DNA of 64,000 nt from a virus: positions 13,054 through 77,053 of IMG/VR virus record IMGVR_UViG_3300023179_000077, one strand, 5' to 3'. A program made the position numbers and the translations under genes. The notes under the pieces were generated by a model. It was given only the letters and a program-made list of their open reading frames with translations. It was not told the DNA's origin and did no database searches. Positions 1 through 13,077 of the stretch are shown here, in pieces; position 1 is the first letter of the stretch, and every line of letters begins with the position of its first letter.

Positions 1-525
1 TTAACTTCTAAAAAATGGTCAAATAAAAATAAAAATAAAATATCACAATATAATAAAGAAAAATATAATAATAATAAAGAATACTGGTTAAGTGAAAATA
101 GAAAATTATATAGTAAAGAATGGAGAAGTAATAATAAAGATAAATTAGCAAAATATTGGAAAATTAAATATGATACTGATATTAATTTTAAACTATCTTG
201 TTTGTTAAGACTTAGGTTATATAATGCTTTAAAACTAAATTTAAAAACTAAAAGTGCTATAAAATTAATAGGTTGTACAATAGATACTTTTAAACAATAT
301 CTTGAATCTAAATTTAAACCAGAAATGAATTGGAATAATCATGGTGATATTTGGGAAATTGATCATATTAAGCCATGTGATTCCTTTAATCTAACAGATA
401 TAGAACAACAAAAACAATGCTTTCATTATACTAATATGCAGCCATTATTTAAAACAACAAAAATTGCTGAGTCGTTTGGATATAATGAATTAGGCAATAG
501 AAATAAGACTAATAAATATTTATAG
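1..525 (+). CDS. HNH/endonuclease VII-like homing endonuclease, 5'-truncated by the window edge
   Basis: Frame is open from base 1. Motif IGCTIDTFKQYLE..F.PEMNW.N.G..WEIDHIKP...HYTNMQPL; paralogous to 9117-9665. Confidence 0.75.
   Translation, partial: LTSKKWSNKNKNKISQYNKEKYNNNKEYWLSENRKLYSKEWRSNNKDKLAKYWKIKYDTDINFKLSCLLRLRLYNALKLNLKTKSAIKLIGCTIDTFKQYLESKFKPEMNWNNHGDIWEIDHIKPCDSFNLTDIEQQKQCFHYTNMQPLFKTTKIAESFGYNELGNRNKTNKYL
516..524 (+). promoter_or_regulatory. Putative phage late promoter motif ATATTTAT(A), representative copy
   Basis: The same 8-mer lies just upstream of starts at 516, 2441, 4450, 6150, 9103, 10188, 10882, 15255, 21341, 31099, 33720, 35260, 36287, 38073, 38652, 39695, 42619, 50234, 51903, 56202, 56260, 59089, 62541. 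Confidence 0.75.
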
Positions 526-543
526 ACATAATAAAGCAATATA

Positions 544-2433
544 ATGGCAGAAAATAACCAACAACAACCCGGTTTATTTAGTAGGCTTACACGATTATTC
601 AGTACAGATGTTATTATTAGAAATGTTGGTGGAAATCAACTCAAAGTAGTAGATGTTGATAAAATTCAAGCTTATGGTAATGTAAAGACAAATGCATTAA
701 TAGATAGATATACAAAACTTCATCGTTATGGAGCTAATATGCCCTATAACCCAACAATGAACTATCAAACACTTCGTATTCAGTTATATACTGACTATGA
801 AGCTATGGATACAGAATCTATTATAGCATCTGCTCTTGATATTGTAGCTGATGAGGCTACATTAAAGAATGAAGCAGGTGAAGTATTACAAATCAGAAGT
901 GCTGATGAAAATATTCAACGTATATTATATAATTTATTCTACGATATATTAAACATTGAATTTAATTTATGGTTGTGGATTAGAAATATGTGTAAGTATG
1001 GTGATTTTTATTTACACATGGAAGTCGCTGAAAAATTTGGTGTATACAACGTAACACCTCTTTCAGTATATGATATGATTCGTGAAGAAGGACAAGATCC
1101 TGAAAATCCATCTTATGTTTGCTTCAGAATAGATCCAATGGTTATAGCTGCTGGTGGTATAAGCAATCGTGTTAAAGATAGAGATGGTAAAATTAAATTT
1201 GAAAACTACGAAATAGCTCACTTTAGGCTATTAACTGATGCAAACTATCTTCCATACGGAAGATCATATATTGAACCTGCTCGTAAAACATATAAGCAAT
1301 ATGTGTTAATGAAAGATGCAATGCTATTGCATCGTATCACTCGTGCCCCAGAAAAACGTGTGTTTACTATTAATGTTGGTAACATTCCTCCTCATGAAGT
1401 AGATGCTTATATGCAGAAGGTAATGCAAAAAATGAAAAAAACACCTTACATTGATCAACAAACAGGTGAATATAATTTAAGATATAATTTAATGAACTTA
1501 ATGGAAGACTTTTATCTTCCAGTTCGCGGTAATGATACAGCAACTAAAATAGATACTGTAAAAGGTCTTGAGTATAATGCTATTGAAGACGTAGCATTCT
1601 TACGTGATGAAATGTTAGCTGCACTTAAGATACCTAAAGCATTTTTTGGTTTTGAAAAAGATCTTGAAGGTAAAGCTACATTAGCCGCTGAAGATATTCG
1701 TTTTGCTCGTACAGTAGAACGCGTACAGCGTATTGTTATTTCTGAATTGTATAAAATGGCATTAGTGCATTTATATGTTCAAGGATATGATGGTGAAGCA
1801 TTAACTAACTTTGAGTTATCATTAACTACTCCATCTATCATTTACGAACAAGAGAAAGTAGCATTATGGAAAGAAAAAGTTGACTTAGCTAAATCAATCC
1901 AAGACACTAACTTATTACCTTCAGATTGGATATATGATAATGTATTCCAATTCAGTGAAGATCAATATGATGAATATCGTGATTTAATGCTTGAAGATAA
2001 AAAACGTGTGTTTAGATTAGCTCAAATTGAAAATGAAGGTAATGACCCCGCTAAATCAGGTAAATCATATGGTACACCACATGATTTAGCTTCACTATAC
2101 GGCAAAGGCAGAACAGGAATGGATACTGATGGACCTATACCTCCTGGATATGATGAAAAGCGTCCTGTTGGTCGTCCTAAAGAAAGAGCATCTATTATTG
2201 GTACTCAACAGGATCCATTAGGTAAAGATAGACTTGGTAGAAAAGCAAATAGTACTCTTTATACTGCTAATATTCCTTCTGAAGATGGTACTCCAAAAGG
2301 GGGTTCACCTGTTGCTTTAGCTGAATTAAAGAAAAATAAAAGCTTATTAGAAAGTATCAACGTAGAACGCAAAAAGCTAATATACGATGAAGAAAATAAT
2401 ATGCTAAGTGAGAAAAATATCAAGGGTATATAA
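544..2433 (+). CDS. Portal protein (T4 gp20-like)
   Basis: HRITRAPEKRVF.INVGN.P, MEDFYLP.R and ALKIP motifs; first gene of the head module. Confidence 0.92.
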   Translation: MAENNQQQPGLFSRLTRLFSTDVIIRNVGGNQLKVVDVDKIQAYGNVKTNALIDRYTKLHRYGANMPYNPTMNYQTLRIQLYTDYEAMDTESIIASALDIVADEATLKNEAGEVLQIRSADENIQRILYNLFYDILNIEFNLWLWIRNMCKYGDFYLHMEVAEKFGVYNVTPLSVYDMIREEGQDPENPSYVCFRIDPMVIAAGGISNRVKDRDGKIKFENYEIAHFRLLTDANYLPYGRSYIEPARKTYKQYVLMKDAMLLHRITRAPEKRVFTINVGNIPPHEVDAYMQKVMQKMKKTPYIDQQTGEYNLRYNLMNLMEDFYLPVRGNDTATKIDTVKGLEYNAIEDVAFLRDEMLAALKIPKAFFGFEKDLEGKATLAAEDIRFARTVERVQRIVISELYKMALVHLYVQGYDGEALTNFELSLTTPSIIYEQEKVALWKEKVDLAKSIQDTNLLPSDWIYDNVFQFSEDQYDEYRDLMLEDKKRVFRLAQIENEGNDPAKSGKSYGTPHDLASLYGKGRTGMDTDGPIPPGYDEKRPVGRPKERASIIGTQQDPLGKDRLGRKANSTLYTANIPSEDGTPKGGSPVALAELKKNKSLLESINVERKKLIYDEENNMLSEKNIKGI

Positions 2434-3326: not shown

Positions 3327-3871
3327 TGGATCAATTAAGAGAAAAATTAAAGCAATTAATACGTAAAGAACTAGAGGAGATGTCTGCTACTAGTGGTGGA
3401 GAAGCATATTCTACTCCTTTTGCTTTTGCTAAAAAAGGTCAAAAAACAAACGCTGCTATTCAAACAGCTAAATCTCAAGGAATGAAATTAGCTCCTACAG
3501 GAATACCTAGTGACTCTAAAGTAAGAGATTATAAAGCAATTTGGAAATCAGCTGAAAAATCTAAATATAAGATGTATAAAGAATCTTTAGAAAAAATTGT
3601 TAAAGAAGAGTTACTCAACGAAGTAACCTATTCTAAATTCAAAAACGAAGTTAAATTTAGAACTAAATCAGAACAACTTCATAAAGCAATTCGTGAAGTA
3701 AAACGTAAACTACAAGAAATTGATCGTATTGTTGAATATACTTCACGCATGAAACAAGAATTAAGTGAAGACGGCGGTATCAACTATTGGAAAGCCACTC
3801 AAAAGAATATAGGTACTATATCTGAAATGGTAAACCAATTAAATAATAAGATTAAAAATTTACATCAATGA
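3326..3871 (+). CDS. Putative prohead core/internal protein
   Basis: Leader LREKLKQLIRKELEE, internal LEKIVKEELLNE, coiled-coil C-terminus; head-module position. Confidence 0.5.
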   Translation: MDQLREKLKQLIRKELEEMSATSGGEAYSTPFAFAKKGQKTNAAIQTAKSQGMKLAPTGIPSDSKVRDYKAIWKSAEKSKYKMYKESLEKIVKEELLNEVTYSKFKNEVKFRTKSEQLHKAIREVKRKLQEIDRIVEYTSRMKQELSEDGGINYWKATQKNIGTISEMVNQLNNKIKNLHQ

Positions 3872-4302
3872 AAAAGCAAATTAACGAAATCCGCAGAATG
3901 CAGCAATTAGCTGGGATTTTAAAAGAAAATAATATAAACGAAGCTCCTCAGCCTGATTGGGGTTCTATGGGACTTACATATAGTGATACAATAGGAGATG
4001 ATAATGAAGGTGAATATAATGAGATTGTGGATATAACAAAAAAATTATATCAAGACTTCATAGAACAATATGAGAAAATGCCAGATCAAGAAAAAATTGA
4101 ATATAAAATATCACAAGATATAGATAACGATATTACGAATATGTTAGATGCAATATATAGCTTTTCTTTTAGAAAGGATAATAATGTTAAACTTAGTGAT
4201 GGAAGAACAGTTAGTATTAACTATCTTATGAACAAAATGCTTGAAAAGGGAGAATACAGTAAACTAGCTCAAGATATCTTGGAAATAATTATAGGCTTAT
4301 AA
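3868..4302 (+). CDS. Putative head-packaged protein with scaffold-like leader
   Basis: N-terminus INEIRRMQQLAGILKE resembles the scaffold C-terminus. Confidence 0.5.
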   Translation: MKKQINEIRRMQQLAGILKENNINEAPQPDWGSMGLTYSDTIGDDNEGEYNEIVDITKKLYQDFIEQYEKMPDQEKIEYKISQDIDNDITNMLDAIYSFSFRKDNNVKLSDGRTVSINYLMNKMLEKGEYSKLAQDILEIIIGL

Positions 4303-4321: not shown

Positions 4322-4450
4322 ATGGCAAAAGGTAAAGGTGGTAGTGAAAGCCGTAAAATAACATTCGGCAAACGCAAATTAGGAAAAGCAAAAAAATCCT
4401 ACAATAAGCACGATAGAACAGAAAAAAACTACCGTAGACAAGGACGATAA
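4322..4450 (+). CDS. Small basic 42-aa protein MAKGKGGSESRKITFGKRKLGKAKKSYNKHDRTEKNYRRQGR (absent from the ORF track)
   Basis: ATG 4322 to TAA 4450; fills the gap, has an A-rich leader and is very Lys/Arg rich. Confidence 0.7.
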   Translation: MAKGKGGSESRKITFGKRKLGKAKKSYNKHDRTEKNYRRQGR

Positions 4451-4484: not shown

Positions 4485-4877
4485 ATGAAAAAAAGCGAAT
4501 TACGTGAATTAATAAAAGAAATAATACTTCAAGAAATAACTAAAGTAGAGGAAAGTCAAGAAGAAAGAGGAATTACACCTAGTGGTCAAATTCAAACTCC
4601 CGCACAAGCTCTTGGCCGTGCTCGCCCTAGAACTTCCGCTGAGTTAGCTTGGGAAAATTATGGTTTGGACAGATATACTGCTGGAGTAGCATATAACGGA
4701 GGATATACTAAAAAAGATGGAACATTTGTTCCAGTAGATGAACAAGGATTAGTTAATATAGTAATATCCATGTTAAAGAAAAAATTACCAAATGCTGATT
4801 CTGAAATTGTAGATTGGATGAAAAATAAAACTAGAGAGGTGTATAAAAGACAACAATCGTTTAAAAAAGGTAGTTAA
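4485..4877 (+). CDS. Putative head-packaged protein
   Basis: Leader MKKSELRELIKEIILQE; own late motif at 4450. Confidence 0.5.
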   Translation: MKKSELRELIKEIILQEITKVEESQEERGITPSGQIQTPAQALGRARPRTSAELAWENYGLDRYTAGVAYNGGYTKKDGTFVPVDEQGLVNIVISMLKKKLPNADSEIVDWMKNKTREVYKRQQSFKKGS

Positions 4878-4887
4878 AAATAATATA

Positions 4888-5517
4888 ATGAAAAGCATAC
4901 AAAACCAATATCGCGATCTTAAAGAAGGAAAAATGTCACAAGCTAACTTTATGCGTAATGTGCGTATGACTTTTCCTCATTTAGTTACTAATGTAACATC
5001 ATTTGATGATACTGTCAGAATACTTAAAAATAAACAAATATTAAGCGAAGCTAAAACTAAACTACACCCAAATCAAATTCACCCACAAGAATTAAGAATG
5101 GGTATTAAAGTAGAAATGGAACACACAGATGATCCTAAAAAAGCAGAAAAAATTGCTTTAGATCATTTAGCAGAAAATCCATTTTACTACACAGCATTAA
5201 AATTATCAGGCATTGAATCACCTTCAGCTCCTAAAACTAAAACACCTGCTAAAGCTAAAGCTAAAAAAGAATCAGTTGAATTAGTTGATAAAGAAAATCA
5301 AATGAAAACACCAAAAGGTGTTGAAAAAGCAAAAGCATCAGCTAATAAAGCACATAAAGAAACAAACAAAGGTGTTAAAGGAGTAGAAGAACTCACTCAC
5401 GCTGCTAAAAAAGCTAAAGGCATTAAACAAGTAATGTCTCCTACTGGTGGTAAAATGAAAACCATTAGAGAACAATTAGAAAAACTTGTGCGTGAAGCCA
5501 TAAATGAATATTACTAA
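4888..5517 (+). CDS. DUF5661-like domain protein, putative head internal protein
   Basis: ELRMGIKVEMEHTDD...A.KIALDHL.E.PFYY motif; Lys/Ala-rich tail. Confidence 0.6.
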   Translation: MKSIQNQYRDLKEGKMSQANFMRNVRMTFPHLVTNVTSFDDTVRILKNKQILSEAKTKLHPNQIHPQELRMGIKVEMEHTDDPKKAEKIALDHLAENPFYYTALKLSGIESPSAPKTKTPAKAKAKKESVELVDKENQMKTPKGVEKAKASANKAHKETNKGVKGVEELTHAAKKAKGIKQVMSPTGGKMKTIREQLEKLVREAINEYY

Positions 5518-6122
5518 TGAAATCATTACTCATAGACCATACTCCTTTCCAACATGCTAAGCTTACTTTAGTTGAAGGTAAAGTAAACAATGGTACTGTC
5601 ACTTTAGTTGGTAAATTACAAGAAGCTGAACAAAAAAACGGCAATGGTCGTGTATATCCTCGCGAAATACTTGAAAGAGAAGTAAAAAAATATGCTGAAG
5701 GACCAATAAAAACACGCACTGCTTTAGGAGAACTCGATCATCCTGAAGCCTCTGTTGTTAATCTAGCAAATACTTCCCATGTTATTACAGAAGTATGGTG
5801 GAAAGGAAATGACTTAATGGGTAGATTACAACTATTACCCACACCCGCGGGCAATATCGCTAAAGCACTTGTATTATCTGGTATTCCACTTGGTATTTCA
5901 TCACGCGGTATGGGTAGTGTTAAACAACTTGGTGAAACAGTTGAAGTACAAGACGATTTTGAATTGTTATGTTGGGATTTAGTATCAGTACCTAGTACTC
6001 CACAAGCATATATGAGAATAGCTGAAGCAAAGCAATATGCTTCTATTAAAGATTATAGCAAAGTAAATAGTTTAATTACAGAAATTATTTGTCAACATAC
6101 TGGAGTTTGTCCTTTATGTTAA
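5517..6122 (+). CDS. Prohead core protease (T4 gp21-like)
   Basis: NGNGRVYP, ALGELDHP, GISSRGMGS and DLVSVPS motifs. Confidence 0.95.
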   Translation: MKSLLIDHTPFQHAKLTLVEGKVNNGTVTLVGKLQEAEQKNGNGRVYPREILEREVKKYAEGPIKTRTALGELDHPEASVVNLANTSHVITEVWWKGNDLMGRLQLLPTPAGNIAKALVLSGIPLGISSRGMGSVKQLGETVEVQDDFELLCWDLVSVPSTPQAYMRIAEAKQYASIKDYSKVNSLITEIICQHTGVCPLC

Positions 6123-6270: not shown

Positions 6271-7353
6271 ATGACAAACCAAGATTTGTTCAAAGAAGCA
6301 ATTGCTGACGCTAAAGCTATTCGTGAAACTGCTTTAGCTAATGCAAAAGTTGCTCTTGAAGAAGCTCTTGCTCCTAGACTTCAATCTATGCTTGCTGCTA
6401 AATTGCAAGAAATGGATAATATGGACGAGGCTGAAGAAGAGAAACTTGAAGAAAAATCACTCGGTCAAGACACTTATCGTACAGGCGATGTACAACATGT
6501 TGGTGCTAGAGAAAGACATGCTGCACTCGAAGAAAACGAAGAAGAACTTGAAGAAGATTTTGATTTATCTGAAATTTTAGCTGAACTCGAAGAAGCTAAA
6601 GAAGAAGAAGAAAAAGAAAAAATGAAAGAAGCTAAAAAAGAAGAAGAGGAAGATGAAGAAGAAGGTGAAGAGCCTGCTGAATCTGAACCTGCTGAATCTG
6701 AAACAGTGGCTGATCTTTCAGTTGATGAATTAAAAATGATTATCAAAGACATTATTTCTAGCGAAATGGAAGACGGCGGCATGGAAGACATGGGCGGCGA
6801 CGAAACAGAAGCTGGAGACGAAATGACGGTTGATGTATCATCTGATGAAGGTGAAGGAATGGAAGAAGATCTTAATTTAGAAGAATTATTAGCTGAACTT
6901 GACGCTTTAGACGAAGACTATTCTGAAGAAGAAACAGAATACGAAGAAGGTGGAATGTACGAAGCTAAGAAAAAAGCTAAAAAAGAAGATGATAAAATGA
7001 AAAAAGAGTTAGATGAAGCTATTGCTACTATCCATACTCTTCGTTCAGAACTTAACGAAGTTAATCTTCTTAACGCTAAATTACTCTATGTAAATAAGAT
7101 TTTCAAAGCCAAGAACTTAACTGAATCACAAAAACTTAAAGTAATCGCTCAATTTGACAAAGCATCTACTGTTAAAGAAGCTAAGATGATTTATGAAACT
7201 ATGGACGTTGCTATTGCAAAATCTGCTAAGTCTTCAATTAAAGAATCTATGGGTTTTGCTTCCAAAGCAGCAGGTGTTGCTAAAAAACCAATCGTCGAAG
7301 TGGACGAAACAATGTCAAGATGGCAAATGCTTGCTGGCATTAAAAAACACTAA
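6271..7353 (+). CDS. Prohead scaffolding protein (start moved to ATG 6271)
   Basis: Highly acidic coiled coil with many L/I-x-E sites, between protease and capsid; begins MTNQDLFKEAIADAK. Confidence 0.85.
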   Translation: MTNQDLFKEAIADAKAIRETALANAKVALEEALAPRLQSMLAAKLQEMDNMDEAEEEKLEEKSLGQDTYRTGDVQHVGARERHAALEENEEELEEDFDLSEILAELEEAKEEEEKEKMKEAKKEEEEDEEEGEEPAESEPAESETVADLSVDELKMIIKDIISSEMEDGGMEDMGGDETEAGDEMTVDVSSDEGEGMEEDLNLEELLAELDALDEDYSEEETEYEEGGMYEAKKKAKKEDDKMKKELDEAIATIHTLRSELNEVNLLNAKLLYVNKIFKAKNLTESQKLKVIAQFDKASTVKEAKMIYETMDVAIAKSAKSSIKESMGFASKAAGVAKKPIVEVDETMSRWQMLAGIKKH

Positions 7354-7383: not shown

Positions 7384-9030
7384 ATGAACGTACAACAATT
7401 ACTCGAGTCATCTAACCAGTATAAAGTTATAATGGAAGATGCACAACGTTTGTCTGGTAAGTGGGCTAAATCCGGTCTTTTAGAAGGCATTAGCAACACT
7501 CAAGACAAAAACACAATGGCTATTCTCCTTGAGAACCAAGCCAAGCAATTAATCACTGAAGCTTCTGCTACAGGTGGTACTACCTCAATGTCTGGTGCTG
7601 GATATAATGCAGAAAACTGGGCTGGTGTAGCTTTGCCATTAGTTCGCCGCGTATTCGGTGAAATCGCTGCTAAAGAATTCGTTAGCGTACAACCAATGAA
7701 CTTACCTTCAGGTCTCGTATTCTATCTTGATTTCAAATACGGTACTGGTGTTAAGCCATTTACCAGCGGTGGTTCACTTTATGGTGCTAACGCTACTACA
7801 AACGTAACCGATATTGCTTCTCAATCACTTTATGGTGCTGGTAAGTTTGGTTACTCAATCAACCAATTCTCAGCTTCTATTGTTGCTGTAACCGGTTCAA
7901 CCACATGGGCTGACTTTAACTTAGATTCTACCTATTCAGCTTCTGCTGCTACTGGTTGGAAAAAGATTTCAGTTCCTCTCCCAGCTGCTGCTGATACAAA
8001 TGCTGTTAGATCATTTGTATTTACTTCTGGTTCTTCCGGAACATTCATCAGCGCTAATGACATTTTACAGCAATTTACAACTGTAGCTAATAGCACAGCT
8101 TCATTCATTGTAACTGGTTCATTAGTATCTGTTTCTAGCTCAACTCCAACAGTAACCTTGTTCTTCTCTGTAGCTCCTACTCCAGCAGCTCGTGGTGATT
8201 TCGAAGATCAAACAACAGGTGGCGGTGCTGGTAACGGCGGTAATGGTGGTTATCCTGGTGCTAACACTACTTCTGCTGCAATTGCTATCCCAGAAATCAA
8301 CGTTCAGTTGAAATCAGAAGCTATTGTTGCTAAAACTCGTAGGTTAAAAGCACAATGGACACCAGAATTCGCTCAGGATCTTAATGCTTATCATAGTGTT
8401 GATGCTGAAGCTGAATTAACTGGTATCTTATCACAGTATATTTCAATGGAAATCGACCTCGAAATCCTTGATATGTTAATTCAAAACGCTTTCACTACTG
8501 AATACTGGTCAGCAGTTAACAACCAAGGCGTAGGTGCTTCTGGTGTTACTAATGGTAACCTCGGTTACTACAACACCCAAGGTGGTTGGTTCCAAACCCT
8601 CGGCACTAAGCTCCAGAAAGTTTCTAACATAATCCATCAGTTAACTCTCCGCGGTGGCGCTAACTTCCTCGTAACTTCACCAACCGTAGCTACAATCCTC
8701 GAATCAATTCCTGGATTTGCTTCTGACGGTGATGGTGAAAAAATGGAATTCAACTTCGGTATTCAGAAAGTTGGTTCACTTAACAGCCGTTACAAGGTTT
8801 ACAAGAACCCATACATGACTGAGAACGTAATCCTCATGGGTTACAAAGGTGCTCAGTTCCTTGAGTGCGGTGCTGTATTTGCTCCATATGTGCCTTTAAT
8901 CATGACTCCACTTCTCTACGATCCTAACACCTTCACTCCACGTAAAGGTTTGATGACTCGTTACGCTAAGAAGATGATTAGACCGGACTATTATGGTCGT
9001 GTATATGTTGCTGGTTTAAATACTCTTTAA
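7384..9030 (+). CDS. Major capsid protein (T4 gp23-like)
   Basis: VQPMNLPSGLVFYL, AKTRRLKAQWTPEFAQDL, FAPYVPL and FTPRKGLMTRY motifs; probable maturation cut at ITE|A. Confidence 0.97.
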   Translation: MNVQQLLESSNQYKVIMEDAQRLSGKWAKSGLLEGISNTQDKNTMAILLENQAKQLITEASATGGTTSMSGAGYNAENWAGVALPLVRRVFGEIAAKEFVSVQPMNLPSGLVFYLDFKYGTGVKPFTSGGSLYGANATTNVTDIASQSLYGAGKFGYSINQFSASIVAVTGSTTWADFNLDSTYSASAATGWKKISVPLPAAADTNAVRSFVFTSGSSGTFISANDILQQFTTVANSTASFIVTGSLVSVSSSTPTVTLFFSVAPTPAARGDFEDQTTGGGAGNGGNGGYPGANTTSAAIAIPEINVQLKSEAIVAKTRRLKAQWTPEFAQDLNAYHSVDAEAELTGILSQYISMEIDLEILDMLIQNAFTTEYWSAVNNQGVGASGVTNGNLGYYNTQGGWFQTLGTKLQKVSNIIHQLTLRGGANFLVTSPTVATILESIPGFASDGDGEKMEFNFGIQKVGSLNSRYKVYKNPYMTENVILMGYKGAQFLECGAVFAPYVPLIMTPLLYDPNTFTPRKGLMTRYAKKMIRPDYYGRVYVAGLNTL

Positions 9031-9069: not shown

Positions 9070-9100
9070 AAAAGGCTCGAGGTAATACTCGGGCCTTTTT
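9070..9100 (+). terminator. Intrinsic terminator after the capsid gene
   Basis: AAAAGGCTCGAG-GTAATA-CTCGGGCCTTTTT. Confidence 0.85.
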
Positions 9101-9116
9101 GTATATTTATACACGT

Positions 9117-9665
9117 ATGAAAACATGTAAAAAATGTGGTATTGAAAAACCACTAAATGAATATTGTAAACGTAAAGAAGAAAAAGATGGATTACATCGT
9201 TATTGTAAACCATGTATGAGACAACGTCTTAAAAATGAGTACAATAGGGATAAAGAAAAACATCTTAAACGTACTCGAAAATATCAAGAGGAAAATAGGG
9301 AATATTTTAGAAATAAATCTAATAATCACTACCACACCAAAAAAGACTACTATCGCGAATGGAATCGAACTAAATATTCTACTGATTTACTATTTCGTCT
9401 CCGCCATACTCTCAATTCTATCATAAACCATCACCTTAAAGAAGGTAAATCACAAAGCAGCATTGACTATCTAGGCTGCACAATACAAGAATACAAAGAG
9501 TATCTTGAACCACTATTCACACCAGAAATGAATTGGGAAAATTATGGAACTTATTGGGAAATAGACCACATTCATCCATTAGCTAAAGGTGGATCATTTC
9601 ATTATACCAACACTCAGCCACTTACTGTAGTTGAAAATAGAATAAAATCAGACATAATATTATGA
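9117..9665 (+). CDS. HNH/endonuclease VII-like homing endonuclease with N-terminal Zn ribbon
   Basis: CKKC...CKPC, LGCT...MNWENYG..WEIDHIHP...HYTNTQPL...N; ATG at 9117. Confidence 0.8.
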   Translation: MKTCKKCGIEKPLNEYCKRKEEKDGLHRYCKPCMRQRLKNEYNRDKEKHLKRTRKYQEENREYFRNKSNNHYHTKKDYYREWNRTKYSTDLLFRLRHTLNSIINHHLKEGKSQSSIDYLGCTIQEYKEYLEPLFTPEMNWENYGTYWEIDHIHPLAKGGSFHYTNTQPLTVVENRIKSDIIL

Positions 9666-12484: not shown

Positions 12485-13077
12485 TGCCCAGAGGAATAGT
12501 AAAATATGTACCTGTAGATAATTGTCCTGATCCAAATTATCCCGCTGCAGCGCCTTCAGCACCTGTAACAAAAGCAGGTACACCTACTGCTCCTGAATTA
12601 CCTCCAACTGGTGCTGATTTTATAAATACATTTATAGATCAAGCAGCTAAATCATCTATTCGTTTTAGTAATATGACTGTAGGTTATTTTAAATTAGATT
12701 TAACCAATACTAAATCAAATATGTATGGTGAATCAATAGAAAAATGGTATTATCCACCAGTGGAAGTAAGATGTTTAATTGAAAGAGGTGATTTTGCTTA
12801 TACCGATACTGAATATGGACCTGATATTAATCAAACATTAACATTAACAATACCAAAAATAACTTTAGTTGAGCTTGACTTTTTACCTGAAGTAGGAGAT
12901 ATAGTTACTGATCAAGAAAGATATTATGAAGTACATGATTCAAACAGATCATTCATAACTATACCAGGTACAGGTAGATCTGAATCAACTGTTGGCACTC
13001 CGGGTCAAATAGTAGTATATAAAGTAACAGCTCACTTAACAAGAACAACAAAACTTAACCTAATACAGTATAGCTAA
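12484..13077 (+). CDS. Neck/head closure protein (gp14-like)
   Basis: NMYGES..K and PEVGDIV...RYYEV motifs; position. Confidence 0.6.
   Translation: MPRGIVKYVPVDNCPDPNYPAAAPSAPVTKAGTPTAPELPPTGADFINTFIDQAAKSSIRFSNMTVGYFKLDLTNTKSNMYGESIEKWYYPPVEVRCLIERGDFAYTDTEYGPDINQTLTLTIPKITLVELDFLPEVGDIVTDQERYYEVHDSNRSFITIPGTGRSESTVGTPGQIVVYKVTAHLTRTTKLNLIQYS

Follow-up and report, generated by a model that had tools for sequence, protein, structure and literature searches.

Scaffolding proteins of several capsid-forming viruses act through their carboxyl termini. In phage P22 the scaffold C-terminus binds the capsid protein, and in herpesviruses the last 25 or so residues of the scaffold attach it to the major capsid protein until a cut just upstream of them releases it; the enzyme is a protease of the assemblin fold, and gp21 of phage T4 is its relative. 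Encapsulins possess no scaffold, portal or protease, and their cargo-loading peptides are usually C-terminal and are not removed. Among the internal proteins of phage T4, IPII and IPIII are basic. Targeting propeptides in T4 have lengths of 10-19 residues, and protease gp21 cuts after Glu in the sequence L/I-x-E (PMC9026906); according to a 2023 review of T4, the mechanisms localising proteins in the core 'remain mysterious' (PMC9958956). CpmB of SaPI1 has a stretch resembling the C-terminus of the 80alpha scaffold and competes with this scaffold for its site on the capsid protein (PMC5644958).

The DNA analysed here, called the window, is a stretch of 64,000 nucleotides from an IMG/VR virus record (IMGVR_UViG_3300023179_000077, positions 13,054 to 77,053). 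It is phage DNA with a G+C content of 32%, and its head module has the gene order of T4, with portal, six small ORFs, prohead protease, acidic scaffold and major capsid protein (Table 1); Pfam matches in the window were PF03420 (E 6e-33), PF07230 and PF07068. Besides the portal and the protease, terminase and tail genes are also encoded. The phage is T4-like, with hosts of the Flavobacterium type, and its nearest cultured relatives by capsid protein identity are Flavobacterium phage vB_FspM_immuto (58%), Microcystis phage Mel-JY01 (49%) and Rhodothermus phage RM378 (38%). Sequence comparison places it in the 'Far-T4' neighbourhood (cf. PMC4360716, a paper in which scaffold and internal proteins are not mentioned). 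The likely start of the scaffold gene is ATG 6271, which is preceded by aaggag. The N-terminus of the scaffold is homologous to that of T4 gp22, its motif D-L-F-K-E-A-I-A-D-A-K resembling T4 MLKEQLIAEAQK, and the N-terminal propeptide of the capsid protein is homologous to and aligns with the T4 gp23 propeptide; the nearest consensus site, L-I-T-E59|A60 (7558-7560), lies near the position of the T4 cut E65|A66.

Some further features of the head region were observed in this phage and its relatives. Two paralogous ORFs, at window positions 1-525 between terminase and portal and at 9099-9665 just 3' of the capsid gene, both contain an HNH-like W-E-I-D-H-I-x-P motif and are probably homing endonucleases. 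Some relatives have two tandem gp23-like capsid genes (L012:8343-11695; L017:10001-13446), possibly the major capsid protein and a vertex paralogue. The scaffold of immuto (L001:7731-8972, immuto_204) is named 'DNA polymerase phi-like protein' in GenBank, probably owing to a spurious match to its acidic low-complexity middle.

Table 1. Head-module genes and peptide elements of the cargo protein and the scaffold, in window coordinates.
Feature	Position	Strand	Remarks
Portal protein, gp20 family	544..2433	+	Portal_T4, E 8e-69; start of the head module holding the cargo gene
Cargo gene, 144 aa	3868..4302	+	acidic body after the leader, pI about 4.2
Leader, residues 1-20, MKKQINEIRRMQQLAGILKE	3868..3927	+	core R10-I17 at 3895-3918
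I5-N6-E7, [IL]-x-E site ahead of the core	3880..3888	+	aligns with scaffold P-I-V-E
Predicted protease sites L18-K19-E20 and I23-N24-E25	3919..3942	+	directly 3' of the core; putative cleavage
Prohead core serine protease, gp21 type	5517..6122	+	Peptidase_S77, E 6e-33
Scaffolding protein, gp22-like	6271..7353	+	acidic middle; directly upstream of the capsid gene
Conserved P-I-V-E, predicted protease site that would detach the tail	7288..7299	+	17 residues from the scaffold end
Scaffold tail peptide VDETMSRWQMLAGIKKH	7300..7350	+	core at 7318-7341
Major capsid protein, gp23 family	7384..9030	+	Gp23, E 6e-76; candidate receptor

The cargo ORF, whose ATG overlaps the TGA of the preceding head-module ORF (caATGAaa), begins with MKKQINEIRRMQQLAGILKENNINEA, and the scaffold ends in PIVEVDETMSRWQMLAGIKKH before its stop codon. 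The initial annotation had stated, with correct coordinates, that the N-terminus of this ORF resembles the last residues of the scaffold by the common element R-x-Q-x-LAGI, and the resemblance was confirmed. In the six-frame translation of the window the element was found exactly twice, at 3895-3918 and 7318-7341, as was plain LAGI; it occupies residues 10-17 of the cargo ORF and lies three residues from the end of the scaffold. The count expected for R.Q.LAGI from residue frequencies was 0.0018, and 300 Markov-shuffled windows contained no match.

The comparison of profiles built from relatives (18 leaders against 29 scaffold tails) by hhalign gave a probability of 96.8% (E 2.2e-10, 19 columns). 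In the alignment, Q-I-N-E of the leader faced P-I-V-E of the tail and the R-M-Q-x-L-A-G-I cores faced each other, with a four-residue gap between these elements. As controls, the reversed tail scored 0.3%, the scaffold N-terminus 5.9% and another leader class 0.4%, and none of 30 column shuffles exceeded 9.6%. The invariant residues R, Q, L, A and G are each encoded by 3-6 synonymous codons, so selection acts at the peptide level rather than at that of DNA or RNA. With an HMM built from the leader only, the scaffold tail was the next match in three other genomes (E 5e-4, 7e-4 and 0.33); in the present genome it was not reached at E ≤ 10. The likeness of leader and tail is real and recurrent, and lies far beyond chance.

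Among the relatives the consensus of the tail is R-[MWF]-Q-x-L-A-[GN]-I, followed by 1-5 residues and the stop codon. The tail is kept wherever a related locus extends upstream of the capsid gene, with a P-I-[VI]-E, likewise conserved, about 14 residues before its core. It also occurs in immuto, Mel-JY01 and RM378 (ending in ERIKRLAGL), and was absent from T4 gp22, which ends in VYAKVASRF, and from cyanophage S-SSM4. In one subclade the tail reads R-M-Q-K-L-A-N-I-(I)-K before the stop, with Gly replaced by Asn (L004, L006-L008, L010, L011, L016-L019, L021 and L023), and the leaders encoded on the same contigs as these L-A-N-I scaffolds retain L-A-G-[IL]. Since Gly and Asn are the favoured residues at a helix C-cap, the exchange of L-A-G-I for L-A-N-I fits a short capped helix, and a low-confidence AlphaFold model contained a helix at E20-L28 of the tail construct. 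It is proposed that the leader core is such a short helix, R-M-Q-x-L-A, with Gly as the cap and Ile next to it, and that it is a copy of the peptide ending the scaffold.

The leader was found to be a portable element. Its consensus is M-K-x-Q-[IL]-N-E-I-K-R-M-Q-x-L-A-G-[IL]-[IL]-x-E. In a set of 79 IMG/VR loci anchored on the capsid gene, 30 distinct ORFs start with M-K-x-Q-[IL]-N-E-[IA]-K-R-[MLW]-Q-x-[LI]-A-G-[ILV], and the bodies of these ORFs, after removal of the leader, form 21 clusters without BLASTP similarity to each other. The 26 leader ORFs that could be placed in these loci are all encoded ahead of the capsid gene and in its orientation, 24 at distances of 1.6-6 kb. Five complete related genomes were searched with the leader-only HMM: three gave two or three leader ORFs each, one gave a single ORF and one gave none. 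With the same HMM nothing was detected in T4 (E ≤ 1), RM378, Mel-JY01 or S-SSM4. The present genome contains three leader ORFs, two of which lie outside the window, at positions 559 and 974 of the contig (G000). In immuto, whose host is Flavobacterium sp. LMO8, the leader ORFs are immuto_188 (MW353175, 111675-112139) and one near 25.1 kb.

A search of 1.84 billion cluster representatives with the leader HMM retrieved 1,320 proteins at E ≤ 1e-3. The best 150 of these included 145 newly retrieved proteins, 142 of which have the core inside their first 14 residues; the 121 bodies with a length of 50 aa or more, whose median pI is 4.8, make up 87 clusters. One of 123 leader proteins contained a Pfam domain, that of a 5'-nucleotidase (NT5C), and the cargo body of the window ORF gave no usable match in Pfam, PHROGs or the ESM Atlas. 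A motif-anchored scan of IMG/VR for DNA encoding NEI[KR]RMQQLAGI yielded 59 stretches, all of which (59/59) are at the N-terminus of an ORF and 39 of which are flanked by homologues of the terminase, portal or head genes of this phage. The motif thus recurs at the N-termini of unrelated ORFs in related phages, which the initial annotation had proposed as a check of its reading.

The two leader genes outside the head module form a tandem pair (559-909 and 974-1303 on G000; L099:500-1400) about 12 kb ahead of the start of the window. They have a common upstream region with ATATTTAT, about 60 identical nucleotides of leader DNA and a repeated 28-nt 3' flank, and their bodies differ, a cassette-like layout reminiscent of T4 ipII/ipIII. 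The element ATATTTAT is located 25-30 nt upstream of both genes, as it is before the terminase, portal and neck genes. On the whole contig it was counted 35 times on the plus strand and 11 times on the minus strand (window positions 516, 2441, 4450 and 10882 among them), and its typical distance of 25-30 nt from the starts of terminase, portal, neck and leader-cargo genes makes it a candidate late-promoter element. Next to the leader-cargo gene, both here (window 4322-4450) and in immuto (L082:5889-6026), there is a very basic ORF of 42-45 aa (MAKGKGG...YRRQGR). Six proteins of the leader library (P0051, P0052, P0056, P0057, P0071 and P0122) repeat the leader internally, in some cases without Met, and look like two-cargo polyproteins or merged gene calls.

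Other terminal peptides were also noted in this group of phages. A second class of N-terminal helix, MKKS[EQ]L..[EY]IKE.I, is found at the start of 10 or more different ORFs of relatives (window 4485-4877; L003:6926, L033:267, L037:33, L038:592, L055:6063 and L070:6431), and it showed no profile similarity to the LAGI leader, the scaffold tail or the scaffold N-terminus; the idea that the MKKSEL.ELIKE... leader is a mimic of the scaffold N-terminus was ruled out by an hhalign probability of 1%. The members of a second protein family, of 313 aa in the present phage, encoded upstream of the terminase gene (L099:9616-10557; L009:949-1050; L022:642-743), end in a variant of the tail, [KQ]-Y-Y-A-G-I-I-K before the stop, and open with the other leader type (MKKSELQELIRE...); no match to the 313-aa protein was found in Pfam, or in cultured phages by tblastn. 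In T4 itself the ipII/ipIII leader MKTYQEFIAE resembles the gp22 N-terminus MLKEQLIAE by the pattern Q-x-[FL]-I-A-E (L094:8118-8927, L095/L096), and the scaffolds of the present clade open with the same motif as T4 gp22, D-L-[FL]-K-[EQ]-A-I-A-[DE]-A-K. To judge from these patterns, mimicry of scaffold termini by cargo leaders may be general, T4 included.

Both peptides are bounded by [IL]-x-E, the consensus of a T4 gp21-type protease. The core of the leader is preceded by I-N-E7 and followed by L-K-E20 and I-N-E25, and the scaffold tail is preceded by P-I-V-E. In the library, 134 of 143 leaders have [ILVM]-x-E directly after the core. Release of the cargo at LKE/INE, as suggested in the initial annotation, fits the L/I-x-E rule and the presence of a gene for an S77 protease of gp21 type; cleavage itself is taken here as a prediction. 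With protease sites on their flanks, the leader and the tail would become free peptides of about 17-20 residues after maturation.

The occurrence of the same start on more than 1,000 unrelated small proteins is most likely explained by a tag that directs cargo into the capsid and can be removed. Residues 1-20 of the cargo protein are therefore probably a capsid-targeting propeptide, the counterpart of the T4 CTS, which would copy the scaffold tail, use the same docking site and be cut off at maturation. The cargo gene would be expressed together with the head genes, and during prohead assembly the leader would take the docking site of the scaffold tail, so that the cargo becomes enclosed. The gp21-type protease would then cut at the [IL]-x-E flanks, at LKE20/INE25 in the cargo and at PIVE in the scaffold, by which the cargo body would be freed inside the head and the scaffold detached. 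The mature, mostly acidic small proteins probably reach the host with the DNA, like the T4 internal proteins. The detection of the tail but of no leader genes in RM378 and Mel-JY01 counts against this reading. The initial annotation had regarded docking by a copied scaffold motif as a second targeting route; the copied motif was borne out, but the route is not clearly a second one and may be the main cargo route of the clade.

By analogy with other scaffolds, the capsid protein, at its inner face or its propeptide, is somewhat favoured as the receptor. The scaffolding core is a possible but weaker candidate, and the portal or the protease is quite improbable in this role. The reading frames of scaffold and capsid protein are in register, with only three TAA codons between them; these were read as Gly, and the tethered construct of tail, linker and capsid protein was modelled with an alignment of 7 paired and 22 capsid-only rows. 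The resulting AlphaFold2 model was too poor to bear on docking (mean pLDDT 48.9, pTM 0.38), the ten-residue block with the tail helix reaching about 56. Co-variation of leader and tail was considered as a guide to the receptor and none was seen, L-A-N-I scaffolds coexisting with L-A-G-[IL] leaders; nothing there ties the two to one receptor.

The same tag function could be served by the scaffolding core, the leader associating with scaffold molecules and possibly bundling with their tails, in the manner assumed for the T4 internal proteins and gp22. In T4, gp22 and the internal proteins are purified together, and an affinity for the core has been ascribed to the CTS (PMC9026906), the scaffold N-terminus has its homologue in T4 gp22, and the small-residue pair A-G could permit close packing of helices. 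However, the solved systems, P22, 80alpha (PMC5644958) and herpesvirus, have the scaffold C-terminus bound to the capsid protein, and the conserved protease site immediately ahead of the tail is similar to the M-site at which herpesviruses free the scaffold from the shell; together with the lack of co-variation between leader and tail, this makes association with the scaffold rather unlikely. The contiguity of the leader core and the cleavage site (L-A-G-I-L-K-E, with [ILVM]-x-E right after the core in nearly all library leaders) invites another reading, that L-A-G-I, at P4-P7 of L-K-E, extends the sequence recognised by the prohead protease or serves it as an exosite, and that the scaffold tail recruits or regulates this enzyme, the recruitment and activation of gp21 being unresolved in T4 (PMC9026906, PMC9958956). 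The scaffold core, however, meets the stop codon without a following Glu and so is not part of a substrate site there, the predicted sites L-I-T-E in the capsid protein and P-I-V-E have no L-A-G context, and the T4 protease requires only L/I-x-E (PMC9026906); a role of this kind is very improbable.

A function unrelated to the virion was also considered, in which the shared N-terminus is, for example, a helix that serves oligomerisation, regulation or stability in early or accessory proteins and its likeness to the tail is due to convergence on a capped amphipathic helix. This is barely credible: the match to the tail far exceeds that of several helix controls, protease consensus sites occur on both flanks of the peptide, and most copies are within the portal-to-capsid module or beside the terminase gene. 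Some leader genes are indeed far from the head module (those at 559 and 974 on G000, and one near 25.1 kb in immuto), but the out-of-module copies have the same upstream element as structural genes; the bodies, with a Pfam domain in a single protein of the 123, are uninformative. The reading as a capsid-targeting propeptide is thus the preferred one.

One may tentatively extend this reading and regard the tail as a universal key to one pocket at the inner face of the gp23-type capsid protein, which Far-T4 Bacteroidota phages would reuse as an N-terminal address for loading a hypervariable set of more than 1,300 families of small acidic proteins; these might be injected and would most likely serve in anti-defence or host takeover. 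The visible copy of the scaffold tail would narrow the question of the CTS to one docking site, two classes of ligand and one releasing protease and, if true, would give the first concrete receptor model for CTS-type localisation in T4-like proheads. The leader is also a sequence handle, by which more than 1,000 uncharacterised small proteins from abundant aquatic phages of Bacteroidota are marked as candidates for packaging or injection, and it suggests a natural tag for the loading of foreign proteins into such capsids. The link between leader and scaffold tail was not described in the searchable literature, and searches with the motif strings returned no relevant paper.

The comparison with the known systems shows several partial likenesses. 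As in encapsulins, a short terminal peptide occurs on diverse cargo and, by analogy, would dock inside an HK97-fold shell; the element described here comes, however, from a bona fide tailed phage with portal, terminase, protease and tail genes, and the parallel is one of analogy only. SaPI1 CpmB and 80alpha likewise provide a second protein with a look-alike of the scaffold C-terminus, but CpmB is an alternative scaffold of a satellite that alters capsid size and not a cargo tag, and the mimic stands at its C-terminus and is not known to be cut off as a leader. The conserved P-I-V-E, 17 residues from the scaffold end, resembles the herpesvirus M-site, cleavage and binding being presumed for the present phage. 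To our knowledge, the reuse of the tail as a portable N-terminal cargo leader is not known in herpesviruses.

In T4, the CTS of IPI, IPII, IPIII and Alt is likewise a short propeptide, found at the N-termini of small, poorly conserved proteins with otherwise unrelated bodies, and it too ends in L/I-x-E. The homologues of gp20, gp21, gp22 and gp23 are present in the same gene order, and leader DNA is duplicated between neighbours in both systems (30 identical nt in ipII/ipIII and about 60 nt in the 559/974 pair of G000). In contrast, the leader has no sequence similarity to MKTYQEFIAE, is twice as long with about 20 aa, has [IL]-x-E on both sides and copies the C-terminal tail of the scaffold; the bodies are mostly acidic, unlike the basic IPII and IPIII, and the scale is far larger, with 1,320 clusters. 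As far as can be deduced from sequence, the system appears to work like the CTS and internal proteins of T4 with unrelated sequences, the link to the scaffold tail being its new element.
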